Shown here piece by piece: positions 1,365-63,802 of a stretch of DNA of 64,000 bases. The position numbers and the translations under genes were made by a program. How positions within the stretch are numbered: position 1 is the first letter of the stretch; the number at the start of each line of letters is the position of its first letter. The notes under the pieces are model-generated. The model made no database searches, had not been told where the DNA came from, and worked only from the letters and a program-made list of their open reading frames with translations. The DNA is taken from contig CAWHCF010000044.1 of assembly GCA_963827655.1 (NCBI GenBank), positions 192,001-256,000 of the forward strand. The letters are read 5' to 3'. The DNA comes from an uncultured Acidobacteriota bacterium (GTDB lineage Bacteria; Acidobacteriota; UBA6911).

Positions 1365-2323
1365 GTGCCCGAAATCGTAAAGCCCCAAACCACTATGCGA
1401 CCTTCGTTGTTAAACCTGCTGGTTTCCCCTGATGCCGGAGCCCCGTTCACACTGGTAGATCCTATCTATCAGGACGATGAGATCTTTGAAGGGTTTCTGC
1501 TCGCCGACAGAACTGGGCAGAAATTCCCGATCAAGAACGGAGTACCCTACTTTGCGCCCCAGGCAGTCAATTTCAATCCTACCGCGCAGCGCTTCGGCTA
1601 CCAGTGGAAACGTCAGGCAACCGGCGCGTTTGAGAAAGAGACGATCTATGGGCAATCCGCCACTCAAGAGTTGGAGGGTTTTCTGCAGGCAACGCGTCTT
1701 TCGATAAAAGACCTTCCTGGTTTGCGAATAGCAGATATTGGGTGCGGCAGTGGCAGATTGTCAAGCAACCTGGCGGAAGCCGGCGCCGAGGTCGTCGCCA
1801 TCGACATCAGCGCCGCGGTCGAAGTGGTCCGGGCAGAAAGAGGTCATCTTCGCAATCTGCATGTAGTTCAGGCGGATTTGTTTCACCTGCCGTTCCGCGA
1901 CCGCTCGTTCGATGTTATCTGGTCGGATGGCGTGATCCACCACACGCCGAACCCTGCAGTAGCAGTCTCGGCGCTGGCGTCAAAGGTGGCAATGGGTGGC
2001 CGGCTCGCCATCTATGTTTACCCTCACGAAACGTCGATTTACAAGCTCGTTCGACGTTGGACGCCAGGGGTTAATCGCTGGCCAATTCCCATAGTGTCGG
2101 CCTACAGCGCGGTAACGGCCCCGTTCATCTATTTTCTCCGCATCCTGCCGGTAAGCGACAGCCATATCGCCAAGTCAAGTTTCACCTCTTCGACACGCTT
2201 GCCTGTCCCTACCTGTCAATGCACTCTCCGGCTGAAGTGACAAACTGGTTTGAGAGCAACCAGTTTTACAACATAACTATGATGCAGCCCCCGATAACTG
2301 CGCTCGGCATCAAACGAGGGTGA
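1365..2323 (+). CDS. Class I SAM-dependent methyltransferase with N-terminal Trm112-like domain, frameshift near 2160
   Basis: LLVSP..FPIKNGVP (Trm112-like), IADIGCGSG motif I, SDGVIHHTP. An alternative frame continues PYRQVKFHLFDTLACPY..EVTNWF..GIKRG* to 2323. Confidence 0.75.
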
Positions 2324-2451: not shown

Positions 2452-2847
2452 GTGCATTCTCGAAGCGACCTCACAGAAGCGCTTCTCAATCTCATTCGAG
2501 GCAGCGGAGTCAGGCGCGGTTCACATCAGCTGCTCCTCGACGAGACTGACGCCACTCCCCTTTTCATCGAGTTATTGCTTGAAGAGAAATTTGAGCTTGC
2601 GCGAATCGAGGAAATCGCGATCGAGCCCGGAGAGAGGGTTCCGGCTTTCTACCTGGAAAAGGGCACCGCTCACTTCGGATGGGTCTTTTGGGAAGCGTTC
2701 TTTCCCGGGCGGATGCGGAAGATCTTCGGATCCGTTCATCGAAACGAGAAGGGAGATTGGACAATCATGTTAGGTCGAAAACAACAGGTCTATGCGAACC
2801 TGATTCTCAAGGAAGCGATGGACCTCGATCATCCCTCCGAGTTCTAA
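2452..2847 (+). CDS. Hypothetical protein
   Basis: 131-aa ORF with globular composition; no motif recognised. Confidence 0.55.
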   Translation: MHSRSDLTEALLNLIRGSGVRRGSHQLLLDETDATPLFIELLLEEKFELARIEEIAIEPGERVPAFYLEKGTAHFGWVFWEAFFPGRMRKIFGSVHRNEKGDWTIMLGRKQQVYANLILKEAMDLDHPSEF

Positions 2848-3324
2848 CCCGTAGCTACCTGCCGCTTTGTTCTTCCGTCGGTGCGGCTTGAGCCTTTTTA
2901 GCAGACAGGTGCCTAATAGCCTATAATTGATCGCTGCATTCAACAACAGCATGTAGCTTCCACTGGTTTCCATGCGCCAGAAGGGATTGTTGGTACAAGG
3001 GAAATTTGTCCTCGTATCCGTAAAGTAACCGGGCTCGTCCTGTCAGCGACCACCGAGTTCAAGATGCTCCCTCGAACCTGCAGCTGGCGCGTCTGAGTAA
3101 TGGAAAGCCCCGAGACCAGGCCATAGTCAAGGGGAATGGCACTGACTCCCGCCAAAGACTCCGTGGTTCGTAAATTGAATCGTTCCTTCCTCAGCGCCCA
3201 AAACGTCTTCGCAGCCGCGGGTCTGATCGCCACACCACATACCAGAACTGGACCCGAGCTTGATTTGATTTCACCGTGTTTCTATATTCTAATCATCAAC
3301 CGCCTTGGAACAGGGAGACCAGGG

Positions 3325-6903: not shown

Positions 6904-6939
6904 TTCCCTGCTATAATTTTGCGCTTGGAGTTCACGAAA

Positions 6940-7305
6940 ATGGGACCTTTTCAAAAACATGTTTTCGTCTGCACCAGCGGCGCCACCTGTCCCGTAGAGG
7001 GCAACTCCCAGAGCGTACATGCCCGGCTCAAGGAGCTGGTAAAAAATGCGGGCCTGAAAACAACCATCCGCGTCAATAACTCCGGGTGCATGGATCAGTG
7101 CGGGAACGGCCCCATGATCGTGGTTTATCCCGAAAACGTCTGGTACTGTCATGTGCGGGTCGAGGACGCCGATGCGATCTTCGAGGAACATCTGGTAGGG
7201 GGCCGGCCGGTCGAAAGATTGATATACCGTCCTCTGAAGCCAGGCGCCAACAAGATCTGCAAAGAAGAACCTCCGACCTCCGACAGTTCAAACCGGCAGC
7301 CTTGA
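6940..7305 (+). CDS. Thioredoxin-like (2Fe-2S) ferredoxin
   Basis: HVFVCTSGATC...SGCMDQCGNGPMIVVYPENVWY...EHLVGGRPVERL. Confidence 0.9.
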   Translation: MGPFQKHVFVCTSGATCPVEGNSQSVHARLKELVKNAGLKTTIRVNNSGCMDQCGNGPMIVVYPENVWYCHVRVEDADAIFEEHLVGGRPVERLIYRPLKPGANKICKEEPPTSDSSNRQP

Positions 7306-7449
7306 GGCTGCAACCAGACGAGATCTTCTTCGTGTCTTCGCGTCTTAGATCCTATGTAGGGCGGCAGCTCGCAGGGTCGAAAGAGCGGGCCGTTCTTGGT
7401 AAGCTCCTTTTGGGTTTAGTTGTCTAATCCAAAACAAAAAGGAGAAACT

Positions 7450-8605
7450 ATGACCAAGACGACCCGCAACCAACAGTATAGCGATATTCGACCGACATTG
7501 TTTATGGCATTTGAGCTAGGGATGTCGGAATGGAAACTGGGGTTCACGATTGGGCTGGGGCAGAAGGCGCGAAGGCGCACGGTAACAGCCGGCAACCTTG
7601 AAAAAGTACAGAGGGAGATCGTGGCCGCCAAGAAACGGTTCCAACTTCCGGAGACGGCCGAGGTGGTGAGCTGCTACGAAGCAGGGCGGGATGGGTTTTG
7701 GCTGCATCGATACTTGACGCAGTCTGGGATCGGGAACCTGGTGGTGGACTCAGCGAGCATTGAAGTGAACCGGAGAAAGCGGCGAGCTAAGACGGATCGC
7801 ATGGACGTGGAGAAGTTGCTGACCATGCTGATTCGGTATCAGTACGGAGAGCACAGGGTCTGGAGCGTGGTGCGAGTACCTTCGCCCGAAGAGGAAGATA
7901 ACCGGCAGTTGAATCGAGAGCTGCGCAGCCTGAAGAAGGAGAAGACGCGGACCACCAATCGCATCAAGGGACTACTGGCGAGCCAGGGGGTCAGGCTTGA
8001 GCCTGGGAAGGAGCTGTCGGACAAGAAACTGGACTCGATCAGGTTATGGGATGGCTCGCCATTGCAGCCGGGGTTAAAAGGCCGCCTGCAGCACGAGTGT
8101 GCGCATGTGGTGTTTTTGAAGCGACAGATCCTGTCGCTGGAGGGGGACCGCAGGCGCGAACTCAGAGAGGGAGAGAACCCGGACCTGGACCAGGTTCGCC
8201 AGCTTGCGTCTTTGCGCGGCATTGGTGTCAACGGCGGTTGGGTGCTGGTGCGAGAGTTCTTCGCCTGGAGGGAAGTTTAACAACCGGCGCGAAGTGGGGT
8301 CGCTGGCGGGCCTGACGCCGACCCCCTATCAGAGCGGGGAATCGAGGCGGGAGCAAGGGATTAGCAAAGCCGGCAACCGTCACGTCCGGGGGGTAATGAT
8401 TGAGCTGGCCTGGTCTTGGGTGCGCTTCCAGCCCAAGAGCAAGCTTACTCAGTGGTTCGAGGAGCGTTTCGGCGGTGCGGGCAAGCGCGTCCGTAGGGTT
8501 GGAATAGTGGCTGTGGCACGACGCCTGCTGATCGATATGTGGAAGTTCCTCGAGACCGGAGCTCTGCCCGAGGGCGCGCAACTGAAAAAAGTAGTAGTCG
8601 CTTAG
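7450..8605 (+). CDS. IS110 transposase/recombinase, frameshift near 8273
   Basis: RuvC-like LFMAFELG..CYEAGRDGFWL..KTDRMD. The second frame gives FNNRREVGSLAGLTPTPYQSG (catalytic Ser) and ISKAGN..IVAVARRL. Confidence 0.92.
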
Positions 8606-9044
8606 ACGGAGAGAAACCAGAACGTGAGAACGTTCGAGACCTAAACAGCCTATGAAACCTCAGGTGTTGTTTTCCTCTTGCGGCCATTGTGCTCCGGCCG
8701 GCCCCAGCGGCGTCAAGGCTAAACCCTTTGGGCGCGCTGTGCGCGGCCTTGACCCCGCGGGCCGACCGGAATTTTTGGCCGCTAAGAGGAAAACAACGGA
8801 GAGTAAACCAACTTCTCGGCATGGTGGGACTGCCCGAAAATACCACTGGTATCCGTTTTGGAACCGGTTCCTAGATGGGGCGTCCCGAAAGCGCTCGCAC
8901 ATTTTTCGCCACCGCGCGAATACAGGATTGGGTGTCCGATCACTACACGATCGGCACGGATAGAAGTTTCATTCGGGGTCTATCCCCGAATCAGACACCG
9001 AGCCACCAGCTGCAGACGTAACCAAGGAGGTCAACCGAAGGAGC
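8606..9044 (+). ncRNA. Putative bridge RNA / seekRNA in the IS 3' non-coding end (exact ends unknown)
   Basis: Long hairpin 8666-8797. Stem with internal loop 8826-8886 carrying the target match AAATACCACT. Stem with internal loop 8917-8975 carrying the donor match ATAGAAG. Confidence 0.8.
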
Positions 9045-9068
9045 TTGACACCCAAGACTACATAGAAG
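9045..9068 (+). promoter_or_regulatory. Outward-facing -35 (TTGACA) at the IS right end; candidate circle-junction promoter
   Basis: TTGACA at 9045-9050. On circularisation it lies 17 nt from GATCCT (9068 plus 7349-7353), a weak -10-like hexamer upstream of the transposase. Confidence 0.6.
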
Positions 9069-9102
9069 TGGTATTTGTTCCGCAAGCAAGCTTGCGCCAG
9101 TC

Positions 9103-10119
9103 CTACGTTTGAATCCGAACCTTGCGCTTCGCCCTGGCATCCGCAGTTCTGGAGCCGATTTCCAAATGCGCTCGCCCCACCGACCGGAAGATGTTGGGAG
9201 GTTGCCGGGGAGCGCGAAAACGGACGCTGCAATCGGCGCGATCTGTATGATGGCAGTAGACCGCGCGTCCCGATGGCTCTTCGTACTTCGCAAGCACCAT
9301 CTCGGCCCACGGGAGCGTCAGAGCGACAACGACCTCTTCTTCTCCGAGACTCCCTTTCCACTCCCAGGGACTCTCCCACCGCTGTCCCCATGACGTCTCA
9401 GGCCGAAGCTGAAGATGTTTTTCCTTCCAGACCAGATGACCGAAACTCAAGCGATTCATTAGAAAATTCCCGACCAGATGCGGCTGGGCGATCAGTCCGG
9501 TGACGTAGGCCGCCAGGGGATCGCTTCCCTGCTCGAGAAACGAGCTGCAGTGAAACCAGACCCACTCGGCGGGATACCGCCTTCCCCAGGCGTGAATCTG
9601 CTGCCCGGTATCATTGTTGAGGATGAATGAATGATCGCGGATCTGGATCTTCCCCCCGATCGACATGAAGGGATGAGGTGTCAGCACTTTTGAACCAATC
9701 ATGCCCGTCTTGTAGAAAACCTCGGGCAAATAGTGCAGCGGATCAGTCACCGGTTCATAGACCAGGTCCCAGGTTACAGGCGTGCCATTGGCCTCGATCA
9801 TACCGGTCATGCGTCCTGATTGGAGGCTGCAGGGACCCATTTTCAACAGAAAAGGGTAGGGCTCCGCAAAGAACTGGTTCGCAGGGTATATCTGAGCCAC
9901 GGCCACATTCGCATCTCCTAAATCCGGAACATACGACGTAAACAAAACCTGGACGCTGATCTCTTCCCGGCGAGGCACCAGCAGCGAGTACTGAATCCAA
10001 AAGCCTGCTCCCGAGGTCAGCTGGTTCATGGTCGTAGACCAGGTCTCGAAATGAGAACGAGTATGGCCGTCCCAGCGCAGCCGTTTTAGCGGATCCAGTC
10101 GGGTGGCATCATCTTCCAT
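9103..10119 (-). CDS. Hypothetical beta-rich protein (tocopherol cyclase/lipocalin-like fold, tentative)
   Basis: RWDG..HFETW..GFWIQYSL, WDLVY, GQQIHAWGRRYPAEWVWFHC resembles the G-x-x-x-H-N-W-G motif. Start uncertain. Confidence 0.55.
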   Translation of the reverse strand: MEDDATRLDPLKRLRWDGHTRSHFETWSTTMNQLTSGAGFWIQYSLLVPRREEISVQVLFTSYVPDLGDANVAVAQIYPANQFFAEPYPFLLKMGPCSLQSGRMTGMIEANGTPVTWDLVYEPVTDPLHYLPEVFYKTGMIGSKVLTPHPFMSIGGKIQIRDHSFILNNDTGQQIHAWGRRYPAEWVWFHCSSFLEQGSDPLAAYVTGLIAQPHLVGNFLMNRLSFGHLVWKEKHLQLRPETSWGQRWESPWEWKGSLGEEEVVVALTLPWAEMVLAKYEEPSGRAVYCHHTDRADCSVRFRAPRQPPNIFRSVGRAHLEIGSRTADARAKRKVRIQT

Positions 10120-37688: not shown

Positions 37689-39272
37689 ATGTTGGCGGAT
37701 TTCAAAAACGAGCCGGTGCTGAATTTCACCGAAGCCTCGAATCGCAACGCCCAGCGGGAGGCGCTTGAACGAATCCAGAGTCGACTCGGGCGTGAATACG
37801 ACCTGATCATCGGCGCCGAGCGTCTGAAGTCGCCCCAGACCTTCACCTCGATCAACCCGGCCAGTAAGTCTGAGGTCATCGGCATCTTCCAGAGCGCCAC
37901 GCCCGAGCAAGCCAACCGCGCCGTCGAGTCCGCCTATGAAACCTTTCATTCCTGGAAAAAAGTCCCTGCCGAAGAGCGCGCCAATATTCTCTTCCGCACA
38001 GCCGACTTGCTGCGGAAGAAACGATTCGAAAACAATGCCTGGATGATCCTGGAAGTGGGTAAATCCTGGGCCGAAGCCGACGCCGACACCGCCGAGGCCA
38101 TCGATTTCTGCGAATTCTACGGGCGCGAGGCGCTTCGCTACGCTGGCCCTCAGCCGTTGACCCGCATACCGGGCGAAAAGAACGAGCTGAAGTATATTCC
38201 CCTTGGAGCAGGAGCCGTGATCCCGCCGTGGAATTTCCCCAGCGCCATCATGGTCGGTATGACCACAGCCGCCATTGTGACGGGAAATACGGTCGTCTTG
38301 AAACCTTCATCGGATTCACCGGCGGTCGCGGCTTTTTTTATGGAAATCCTGCAAGAGGCAGGACTCCCTCCGGGCGTGGTCAACTTTATCACCGGCGACG
38401 GTAAGACCGCGGGAAACACGCTGGTAGAGCATTCCAAGACTCGCTTCGTGGCTTTCACCGGATCGAAGGAAGTCGGACTGCGCATCACGGAAGAAGCCTC
38501 GCGTCCACGACCGGGCCAGGTCTGGATCAAGCGCGTCATTGCCGAAATGGGAGGCAAGGATTTCATCATCGTGGACGAGGACGCCGATCTTGAATCCGCC
38601 GTGGATGGCGTGCTGGCGAGCGCCTTTGGTTTTCAAGGACAGAAGTGCTCCGCGTGTTCGCGAGCCATCGTTCATGAACGAGTCTACCCGAGCTTTCTCG
38701 AGAAACTGGTCCAGAAAGCGAGGGACATCAAGGTCGGACCGACAACCGAGCCGACCAGCTACATGGGCCCCGTCATCAACGAACGCGCGCTCAGGAACAT
38801 CTTGAACTACGTCGAGATCGGCAAGCGAGAAGGCCAACTCCTGACCGGGGGACAAGCGCAGGCCGGGGACGGATTCTTCATGAACCCCACCGTCATCGGG
38901 GATGTAGATCCTAAAGCCCGGATCGCGCAGGAGGAAATCTTCGGTCCGGTGCTCGCCGTGATCCGGGCCCGAGATCTGGACCACGCCATACAGATCGCCA
39001 ACGACAGCGAATATGGCTTGACGGGATCAGTCTATTGCTCGAATCGCGAGCACATCGATCGAGCCAAAGAGGAGTGTCACGTCGGCAATCTTTATGTCAA
39101 CCGCAAGTGCACCGGCGCTCTCGTGGGAGTGCATCCCTTTGGAGGATTCAATATGAGCGGCACGGACTCCAAGGCCGGCGGCCGCGACTATCTCCTCCTG
39201 TTTACCCAGGCGAAGTCAATCTCGGAAGCGGTCAGTAACCCACCACTCACACAAGAACAAAAGCACCACTAA
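37689..39272 (+). CDS. pruA: L-glutamate gamma-semialdehyde (P5C) dehydrogenase
   Basis: FKNEP, EAIDFCEFY, IPPWNFP, AEMGGK, GFQGQKCSACSR, EEIFGP, PFGGFNMSGTDSKAGG.DYL. Confidence 0.92.
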   Translation: MLADFKNEPVLNFTEASNRNAQREALERIQSRLGREYDLIIGAERLKSPQTFTSINPASKSEVIGIFQSATPEQANRAVESAYETFHSWKKVPAEERANILFRTADLLRKKRFENNAWMILEVGKSWAEADADTAEAIDFCEFYGREALRYAGPQPLTRIPGEKNELKYIPLGAGAVIPPWNFPSAIMVGMTTAAIVTGNTVVLKPSSDSPAVAAFFMEILQEAGLPPGVVNFITGDGKTAGNTLVEHSKTRFVAFTGSKEVGLRITEEASRPRPGQVWIKRVIAEMGGKDFIIVDEDADLESAVDGVLASAFGFQGQKCSACSRAIVHERVYPSFLEKLVQKARDIKVGPTTEPTSYMGPVINERALRNILNYVEIGKREGQLLTGGQAQAGDGFFMNPTVIGDVDPKARIAQEEIFGPVLAVIRARDLDHAIQIANDSEYGLTGSVYCSNREHIDRAKEECHVGNLYVNRKCTGALVGVHPFGGFNMSGTDSKAGGRDYLLLFTQAKSISEAVSNPPLTQEQKHH

Positions 39273-39644
39273 GGCACGAAGACACAAAGAAACGCGCAGC
39301 CGCGATTAGCGGCATGGCTCGCCTTCGACGGCACCCATTACTCTCCTGCTTTTTCGCATAGTTTCTTCGTGTCTTTGTGTCCTGGCGGTTGGGCTTTCGC
39401 TATCCGCACTGAGCAGGCGAGAAAAAACATGAAACGCTTGGCCTGTTAACCGCACAAACCTCCAGAACGATAACCAGGTGCGGTCAGATTCCCAGGCCTG
39501 ATCGTATCTCACCTCTTTATTGGTGACGGTGAAACTCGGCGGTCTGTAGGAGCGTGGGATGAAACACTTCACGCTGACGGGTCCTGGTCATTTCTTTTAT
39601 CCGCAACAGTCTGTTCTACAACTAACGTCAAGAGGAGGGTCTCA

Positions 39645-41390: not shown

Positions 41391-41422
41391 CTAAGACGCG
41401 AAGACACCAAGAAACGCCAAGC

Positions 41423-63740: not shown

Positions 63741-63802
63741 CGTTGATCGGGAAATAACAAATGGATGCTTCGCGTTTCTTGGTGTCTTCGAGTCTTTGCT
63801 GG

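Follow-up and report, generated by a model that had tools for sequence, protein, structure and literature searches.

The 64,000-nucleotide stretch analysed here (the window) belongs to contig C44 of an uncultured Acidobacteriota genome, G000, whose assembly comprises 8.18 Mb in 53 contigs. At positions 7349-9068 it carries an insertion sequence (IS) of the IS110 family, which a prediction made from the bare sequence (the original prediction) had described as a complete element whose recombinase is guided to a host repeat by an RNA encoded in the 3' non-coding end. That claim is borne out by guide/flank covariation, both inside this genome and across a clade of relatives, and by a conserved RNA with compensatory base changes. 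We consider it very probable that the element is an RNA-guided member of the family with an IS1111-like layout and with ISRel9 as its nearest named relative. Its main features, in window coordinates, are:

7326-7348, + strand: left target flank, the octamer array TTCGTGTC TTCGCGTC TT followed by the core AG (7347-7348); part of a genome-wide repeat
7349-9068, + strand: IS110-family insertion sequence, 1,720 bp, with limits common to five genomic copies
7349-7359, + strand: left end ATCCTATGTAG, read in the sequence and including the inverted repeat CTATGTAG (7352-7359); its AT-N3-ATG form is kept in relatives
7450-8605, + strand: transposase/recombinase gene, frameshifted; frame 1 from 7450 to 8280, then a second frame up to 8605
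7513-7515, + strand: codon of Glu22, within the motif AFELG
8825-8998, + strand: bridge RNA/seekRNA region, 174 nt; covariance-model match of 104.6 bits
9058-9068, + strand: right end CTACATAGAAG, read in the sequence, with the sub-terminal repeat (9058-9065) and the core AG (9067-9068)
9069-9079, + strand: right target flank TGGTATTTGTT, reverse complement of the guide at 8838-8845 and a frequent end of the host repeat

The limits of the element, its inverted repeats, the AG core and the guide segments all lie where they had been predicted. Two sub-terminal inverted repeats of 8 bp, CTATGTAG on the left and CTACATAG (9058-9065) on the right, are set three bases inside each end. The AG core stands just outside the left end (7347-7348) and again as the last two bases of the element (9067-9068), and because it is present at both ends these may be shifted by 2 nt. 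The element leaves 101 nt ahead of the start codon and 463 nt past the stop codon, with the RNA in the right end. Its description as complete does not hold for the gene, which starts at 7450 rather than 7451 and is broken in the window by one extra base near 8270-8275. This base is absent from the other four copies in the genome and sits in a run of G, where an assembly error is possible.

A conserved RNA downstream of the gene

The RNA in the right end can be divided into a target-binding part, which comes first, and a donor-binding part:

8826-8886, + strand: target-binding loop, with an outer stem (8826-8835 with 8878-8886) that encloses both target guides and the inner hairpin
8838-8847, + strand: 5' target guide AAATACCACT, complementary to the gene-sense strand of the right flank
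about 8845-8868, + strand: inner hairpin, between the 5' and 3' target guides
8869-8874, + strand: 3' target guide TCCTAG, followed by AT; corresponds in sequence to the gene-sense strand of the left flank (5/6)
8905-8920, + strand: short hairpin TTCGC with GCGAA (8905-8909 with 8916-8920); helix 4, 93.9% of cells paired, compensatory changes in two of four pairs
8924-8928, + strand: left-donor guide AGGAT, complementary to the left end ATCCT
8932-8957, + strand: hairpin separating the donor guides; helix 5, compensatory changes in six of nine pairs
8960-8966, + strand: right-donor guide ATAGAAG, the same sequence as the right end with its core
8971-8991, + strand: 3' hairpin ATTCGGGG with CCCCGAAT; helices 6 and 7, many compensatory changes

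Relatives of the element are plentiful. The intact protein has thousands of metagenome relatives at 60-94% identity, and for comparison we used 80 loci from species genomes (53-62% identity) of Acidobacteriota, Chloroflexota, Gemmatimonadota, Planctomycetota and others. A covariance model of the kind that the original prediction had proposed, here called R1, was built from a hand-checked structure on a 51-sequence alignment and realigned with the model; the structure was given by hand because RNAalifold, applied to a plain MAFFT alignment in which bulges shift the register, found one hairpin only. R1 matches 79 of the 80 related loci, always just 3' of the gene, as well as the five copies in the element's own genome (86 matches in 90 sources). 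A search of that genome gave no R1 match outside the five IS copies and thus no stand-alone RNA genes like ssr9 of ISPpu9.

In the model-fitted alignment, which is biased towards the supplied structure and was safeguarded by controls with slid partners and with shuffling, 88.4% of the cells are paired, compared with 77.3% after shuffling and 40-50% when the partners are slid, and compensatory changes are seen in 28 of the 38 pairs. Positions 7000-9400 had no match in Rfam release 15 at E <= 1, and a scan of the + strand upstream of 8825 yielded no sigma-70-like promoter for the RNA. A weak hint of transcription comes from two metatranscriptome runs, in which contigs span 8553-9070 and 8656-9075; DNA carry-over is possible.

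The original prediction also contained a second stem, CGAAT with ATTCG, closing the donor part. Both pentamers are present (8917-8921 and 8971-8975), but the helix itself was rejected, with 32.6% of cells paired in the register first proposed and, in the consensus register, 66.9% as opposed to 64.2% after shuffling, with little covariation. It competes with two hairpins (8905-8920 and 8971-8991) that do have compensatory support.

Two of the related loci contain two R1 matches less than 4 kb apart: L022 at 109-277 and 2695-2863, and L052 at 1907-2074 (+) and 2731-2898 (-). These pairs, one tandem and one inverted, suggest clustered insertions.

Two target versions in one genome

The element is present five times in its own genome:

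window copy: C44, window 7349-9068; gene frameshifted
C37 copy (L002): G000:C37:40573-42297; open 384-aa gene, about 6 positions different from the window copy
C10a copy (L003): C10:24132-25865; open 385-aa gene, ends intact
C10b copy (L004): C10:27327-29056; open gene
C20 copy (L005): C20:14346-15817; first ~250 bp missing

The flanks of these copies are made of an abundant host repeat built from octamers, with the approximate consensus gATTCTTgG TGTTTCTT CGTGTCTT tGnGTCtT nG TGGTATTTGTT; the unit is often followed by its inverted copy, and the family is often palindromic. TGTTTCTTCGTGTC occurs 254 times in the genome and GTGGTATTTGTT 181 times, while TTCGTGTCTT with at most one mismatch is found 21 times in the window, compared with 3.6 expected. 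Octamer repeat sites in the window include 7326-7348, 24614, 37668, 39271-39375, 41393-41410, 54715 and 63779-63796, among others. The left flank ends in AG in all five copies, and AG stands at both junctions throughout; apart from this short core, which the target and the element ends have in common, there is no target-site duplication, as is usual in the IS110 family. The right flanks read TGGTATTTGTT for the window copy, TGTTTCTTCGT for C10a and C20, TGTTTCTTGGT for C10b and TGTTTGATCGG for C37. Within the repeat unit, the window copy is inserted at the last junction and C10a, C10b and C20 at the first.

How can nearly the same element occupy different junctions of the same repeat? The copies form two lineages that are about 97% alike, and their 3' non-coding ends differ at about a dozen positions only. 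Five lineage differences lie inside the target loop: 8840 A>G, 8841 T>A, 8843 C>A, 8856 T>C and 8871 C>T. Those at 8840, 8841 and 8843 turn the 5' guide AAATACCACT into AAGAAACACT, the exact reverse complement of AG plus TGTTTCTT, and C10a, C10b and C20 each match their right flank AG/TGTTTCTT (a slash before or after a sequence marks the junction) at 10/10. The window guide matches its own right flank AG/TGGTATTT at 10/10, as had been predicted and was reread in the sequence, but that of the other lineage at 7/10. The change at 8871 converts the 3' guide from TCCTAG to TCTTAG, which is the left flank of C10a. This is guide/target covariation inside a single genome. Sites within one mismatch of the ideal 14-mer number 19 in the genome for the window lineage and 219 for the other, many of them with GG replacing the AG core.

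Several of these copies have further peculiarities. The right end of C10b has a 1-nt deletion (CTACATGAAG) within the stretch read by the donor guide. In C20, the deletion joint GCTCTTAG/TGAAAAAGT resembles the usual CTTAG/TG target junction of the element. The two directly oriented second-lineage copies at C10:24132-29056 flank 1.46 kb encoding a DAHP synthase (PF00793 and PF18152), an arrangement like that of a composite transposon.

Guides and flanks across the clade

The same relationship can be followed through the relatives. Multi-copy relatives have ends that are alike, AG/AT-N3-ATG on the left and CATAGAAG/ on the right. Guide columns were taken from the model alignment, in which 81 of 86 rows have them in full, and the ends were found for each element. 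The 7 bases of the 5' guide that lie 5' of the core agree with the right flank at 5.12 of 7 positions (67 rows, 48 distinct guides), compared with 2.12 +/- 0.18 for shuffled pairings and a maximum of 2.94 in 5,000; the 5 bases of the 3' guide that lie 5' of AG agree with the left flank at 4.52 of 5 (58 rows, 32 distinct guides; shuffled 1.54 +/- 0.20). Guide/flank agreement in the relatives is above all 5,000 shuffled pairings.

Both donor segments that had been predicted, AGGAT and ATAGAAG, are present, and variants of the latter are mirrored by the elements that carry them: ATAGAGG, ATGGAAG, ATAGGAG, ATGGGAG and ATAGACG are each repeated at their own right ends. In three loci (L058, L064 and L070) the core is GG or CG, a change that the 3' target guide shares with the right-donor guide and the right end.

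Relatives, too, are found in short host repeats, for example L035-L039 (all from one Acidobacteriota genome), L077/L079 and L092/L097; their targets include GCTKTCAG arrays and GGGTCAG beside a palindrome. Judged from these sequences, repeat targeting looks common in the clade.

The recombinase and its glutamate

The intact protein matches the NCBIfam model NF033542, 'IS110 family RNA-guided transposase', at 177.8 bits (cut-off 140) over residues 65-370, and PF02371, the C-terminal Transposase_20 domain, at 66.8 bits. It contains the motif GLAPTPYQSG, with the serine typical of IS110 recombinases, and all 19 aligned homologs have Ser295. Among PDB folds, the AlphaFold model is closest to the recombinases of ISCro4 and IS621 (E ~2e-11, TM 0.4-0.5), and it shows the strand-helix order of a RuvC fold. 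Recombinases of the IS110 family carry a RuvC-like DEDD domain at the N-terminus.

The original prediction had seen in Glu22 a replacement of the first RuvC aspartate and, from this, a possible distinct clade. The glutamate is confirmed. It is invariant in the same 19 homologs; a motif search of the 80 loci gave Glu in 73 and Asp in 2, and among the five that it missed Glu was read by eye in 3 and Asp in 1; of 120 database homologs, Glu stands at this position in 105 and Asp in 11. In the AlphaFold model Glu22 lies at the end of strand 1, Glu77 at that of strand 4, and Asp116 and Asp119 lie ahead of a helix. The motif pattern, the alternation of Asp and Glu in the clade and the predicted strand position all argue for Glu22 as the first acidic residue of a RuvC-type site, which would make it equivalent to the first catalytic Asp. 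What does not hold is its reading as the sign of a distinct clade: most members of a large clade have Glu here, the catalogued ISRel9 among them, and it therefore marks neither an uncatalogued clade nor an unknown system. Literature searches on ISRel9 and on the Glu variant of the IS110 family found no paper that mentions either, although the supplements of the 2024 papers may list the clade.

Proposed mechanism and its alternatives

In analogy to IS621 and ISEc11, from which RNA binding, the circle intermediate, the junction promoter and the chemistry are inferred, the element would be excised as a circle and inserted by RNA-guided recombination. The recombinase would bind the ~174-nt RNA made from the 3' non-coding end, whose 5' guide AAAUACCAC(U) is expected to pair, on the right of the insertion point, with the strand in which AG-TGGTATTT stands, while UCCUAG would pair in the left flank with the strand opposite to TC(C/T)T-AG. 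AGGAU and AUAGAAG may in turn recognise the element's own joined ends, CATAGA-AG-ATCCT, within a circle junction that should read CATAGAAG/ATCCTATG. Strands would be exchanged at AG. One junction of the abundant octamer repeat, TC(C/T)T-AG-TGGTATTT, is then presumably the programmed target, and the sister lineage, with the mutated guides AAGAAACACU and UCUUAG, would address a different junction of the same repeat. As its own gene is frameshifted, the window copy would depend for its movement on recombinase made by an intact copy.

Several observations weigh against this reading or parts of it. The original prediction had expected the flanks of other copies to follow their guides, which is true of C10a, C10b and C20 but not of C37: this copy has window-type guides, and its right flank TGTTTGATCGG fits them at 3/7 only. 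The misfit could be due to an off-target event, to RNA of the other lineage or to a later rearrangement; the same flank agrees with the guide of the other lineage at 5/7, and the left flank of C37 is a proper repeat. Two left flanks fit imperfectly, that of C10b at 4/6 and that of the window copy, which reads GCGTCTT-AG, at 5/6 (TCTTAG vs TCCTAG), as the original prediction had counted it. Across the relatives, the left-donor guide covaries weakly with the left end (3.76 vs 3.34 of 5; 9 of 5,000 shuffles were as high). On the protein side, the RuvC-like domain PF01548 scores 27-28 bits, under its 29-bit cut-off, in a match that starts at residue 58 and leaves the first 57 residues outside; the AlphaFold model is of middling confidence (mean pLDDT 72.7, pTM 0.43); and in alignments by HMMER and hhalign with IS621/ISCro4 and ISEc45 the N-terminus stayed unaligned, so that the first strand was not reached. 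R1 found no match in ISRel9 at E <= 0.001. Contigs of four public runs showed no joint in their covered parts, neither an empty site nor a circle junction. Overall, the evidence comes from sequences and models, which establish where the element begins and ends, its family, the conserved structure of the RNA and the covariation of guides with flanks.

Might the window, then, preserve the remains of a system rather than a working one? The copy in the window could be immobile, and perhaps so could the entire family in G000, with guide/flank matches that record past insertions. Such a fossil would have a frameshifted gene like that in the window, and it would be in keeping with the missing ~250 bp at the 5' end of C20, with the 1-nt deletion in the donor-guide-read sequence of C10b, with a mere five copies despite hundreds of near-matching sites, and with the lack of joints in the public-run contigs. 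Nevertheless, C37 and C10a combine open 384/385-aa genes with intact ends, C10b has an open frame, the near-identity of the window and C37 copies (~6 positions differ) points to recent copying, and the frameshift, lying in a G run, could be an assembly error. We hold immobility to be rather unlikely, if well worth keeping in mind, and it bears on present activity, not on the identity of the element.

Far less weight falls to the idea that the protein alone chooses the target, in the manner of a classical site-specific recombinase, and that the identities between 3' end and flanks are due to chance or to pieces of target that an imprecise excision took with it. In its favour, each match is no longer than 5-10 nt, the 3' guide fits imperfectly in the window and C37 does not fit its guides; but the matching segments occupy fixed unpaired positions of a conserved, covarying fold in 79 of the 80 relatives, 48 and 32 distinct guides vary along with their flanks far past shuffled pairings, and three substitutions in this genome follow the flank change exactly. 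RNA guidance has moreover been shown experimentally for the IS110 family (PMC11208160, PMC11187229). Target choice by protein alone therefore strikes us as very improbable. The same holds for a role of the conserved 3' structure as folded single-stranded DNA in transposition, for which one could invoke the lack of a promoter-like site on the + strand upstream of 8825 and the inferred nature of the transcript. Relatives with solved structures use RNA (PMC11208158), the helices are rich in G-U type pairs (GU:13 at pair 1-107, UG:18 at pair 33-75), which fits RNA better, and metatranscriptome contigs, for all their possible DNA carry-over, lie over 8553-9070 and 8656-9075. There is little to recommend the DNA explanation over an RNA-guided element.

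Relation to known systems

IS1111-group elements with a 3' seekRNA, namely ISEc11, ISPa11 and ISKpn4, have been described by Siddiquee et al. 2024 (PMC11187229). With this group our element shares the long non-coding region 3' of the gene, the short left and the long, RNA-bearing right end, sub-terminal inverted repeats (8 bp here, 7-17 bp in the group; PMC11208160) and the GL-P----SG motif. As in IS1111 seekRNAs, the complement of the top strand lies 5' of that of the bottom strand (PMC11187229). Natural reprogramming between close relatives is likewise known from ISEc11 and ISXne4 (PMC11187229), whereas here it occurs between two lineages in one genome and concerns two junctions of one repeat. 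Different from the group are the first catalytic residue, Glu here, and the length of the protein, 384 aa compared with the 330-350 aa stated for IS1111 transposases (PMC11187229). Given this length, we call the element IS1111-like in layout and do not for the present assign it to the IS1111 group. The enterobacterial IS110-family members that were found have ~30% identity to its protein.

IS621 and ISCro4 (PMC11208160; PDB 8WT6, 9T56) offer a second comparison. Their RNA also has two parts, with target guides first and donor guides second. In the element as in IS621, the 5' guide is the longer one (7-8 nt plus core) and the 3' guide the shorter (5 nt plus core), on opposite DNA strands, the lengths given for IS621 being 8-9 and 4-7 (PMC11208160); the core dinucleotide, CT on the other strand, is read by the guides; and the target is a host repeat, REP in the case of IS621. 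The differences lie in the position of the RNA, which is at the 5' end in IS621 and at the 3' end here, in the donor guides, which here lie between three hairpins with no closing helix supported, and in the protein, of which only the C-terminal domain aligns by sequence and in which Glu replaces the first Asp.

The nearest named element, ISRel9 from Rhizobium (name from the NCBI annotation of NZ_CP013504.1), shares 39.6% identity over 95% of the protein and is too distant to be the same IS. Its 388-aa protein has Glu at the same place (VSLELS), and, read by eye only, its left end, AG/ATCCCATG, is like that of our element and its 3' segments match its own flanks and right end. ISPpu9 and ISPpu10 of Pseudomonas putida (PMC12288879, bioRxiv 10.64898/2026.03.19.712850) are similar in that these IS110 elements lie in repetitive extragenic palindromes and have a small RNA gene 3' of the transposase; ISPpu9 has extra stand-alone copies of the RNA gene, whereas the RNA described here is found only within the five IS copies.

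Further features of the locus

Two more features of the element deserve mention:

8666-8797, + strand: imperfect palindrome of 132 nt, between the transposase stop codon and the guide RNA; fold energy z = -7.2
9045-9050, + strand: TTGACA, likely the -35 box of a junction promoter that is complete only once the ends join (17 nt, then G/ATCCT)

Of 62 distinct right ends, 46 have TTGAC at a distance of 18 nt from the terminus. On joining to the left end it would form TTGACA-17 nt-G/ATAAT; in the window element the -10 sequence would be the weaker G/ATCCT. Junction promoters of this kind have been described for the family (PMC11187229), and the conserved TTGAC would be the probable -35 box in the circle. 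The palindrome, within its own genome, is confined to the five IS copies and hence no separate repeat family; in relatives, the gap between stop codon and RNA, which it occupies in the window copy, measures only ~85 nt.

The IS begins ~43 nt past the stop codon of the gene directly upstream (6919-7305), whose 128-aa product has a weak match to thioredoxin-like [2Fe-2S] ferredoxins (22.6 bits, cut-off 24.8). In G007, a relative from another genus, the syntenic locus has no IS: the same two flanking genes lie ~150 nt apart around a related repeat, ..GCGTCTTAG/CGGTGAGG.., compared with ~1,850 nt in the window, where the IS stands between them.

Implications for the evolution of guided recombinases

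RNA guidance, 3' placement of the RNA, repeat targeting and natural reprogramming were already published in 2024 (PMC11208160, PMC11187229), and the element is a new member of this family. Whether its clade, with many relatives from soil, is also a distinct branch of bridge recombinases is a more speculative matter. Such a branch would be characterised by a Glu-Glu-Asp-Asp site, by a compact 174-nt 3' RNA with donor guides between hairpins, and by guides that drift stepwise along octamer registers. Co-resident lineages with common donor ends could moreover share their RNA in trans, which would explain both the C37 misfit and the target-like deletion joint of C20. We put this forward tentatively and think it may well prove otherwise.

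What the two lineages do provide is a natural example of retargeting, in which four base changes, three of them in the 5' guide and the fourth in the 3' guide, shift the repeat junction, and in which both target versions are kept in one genome with common donor ends. Beyond this genome, the conserved 3' RNA of 174 nt and the Glu site recur in a large clade of mostly uncultured organisms, which may be mined for new programmable recombinases.

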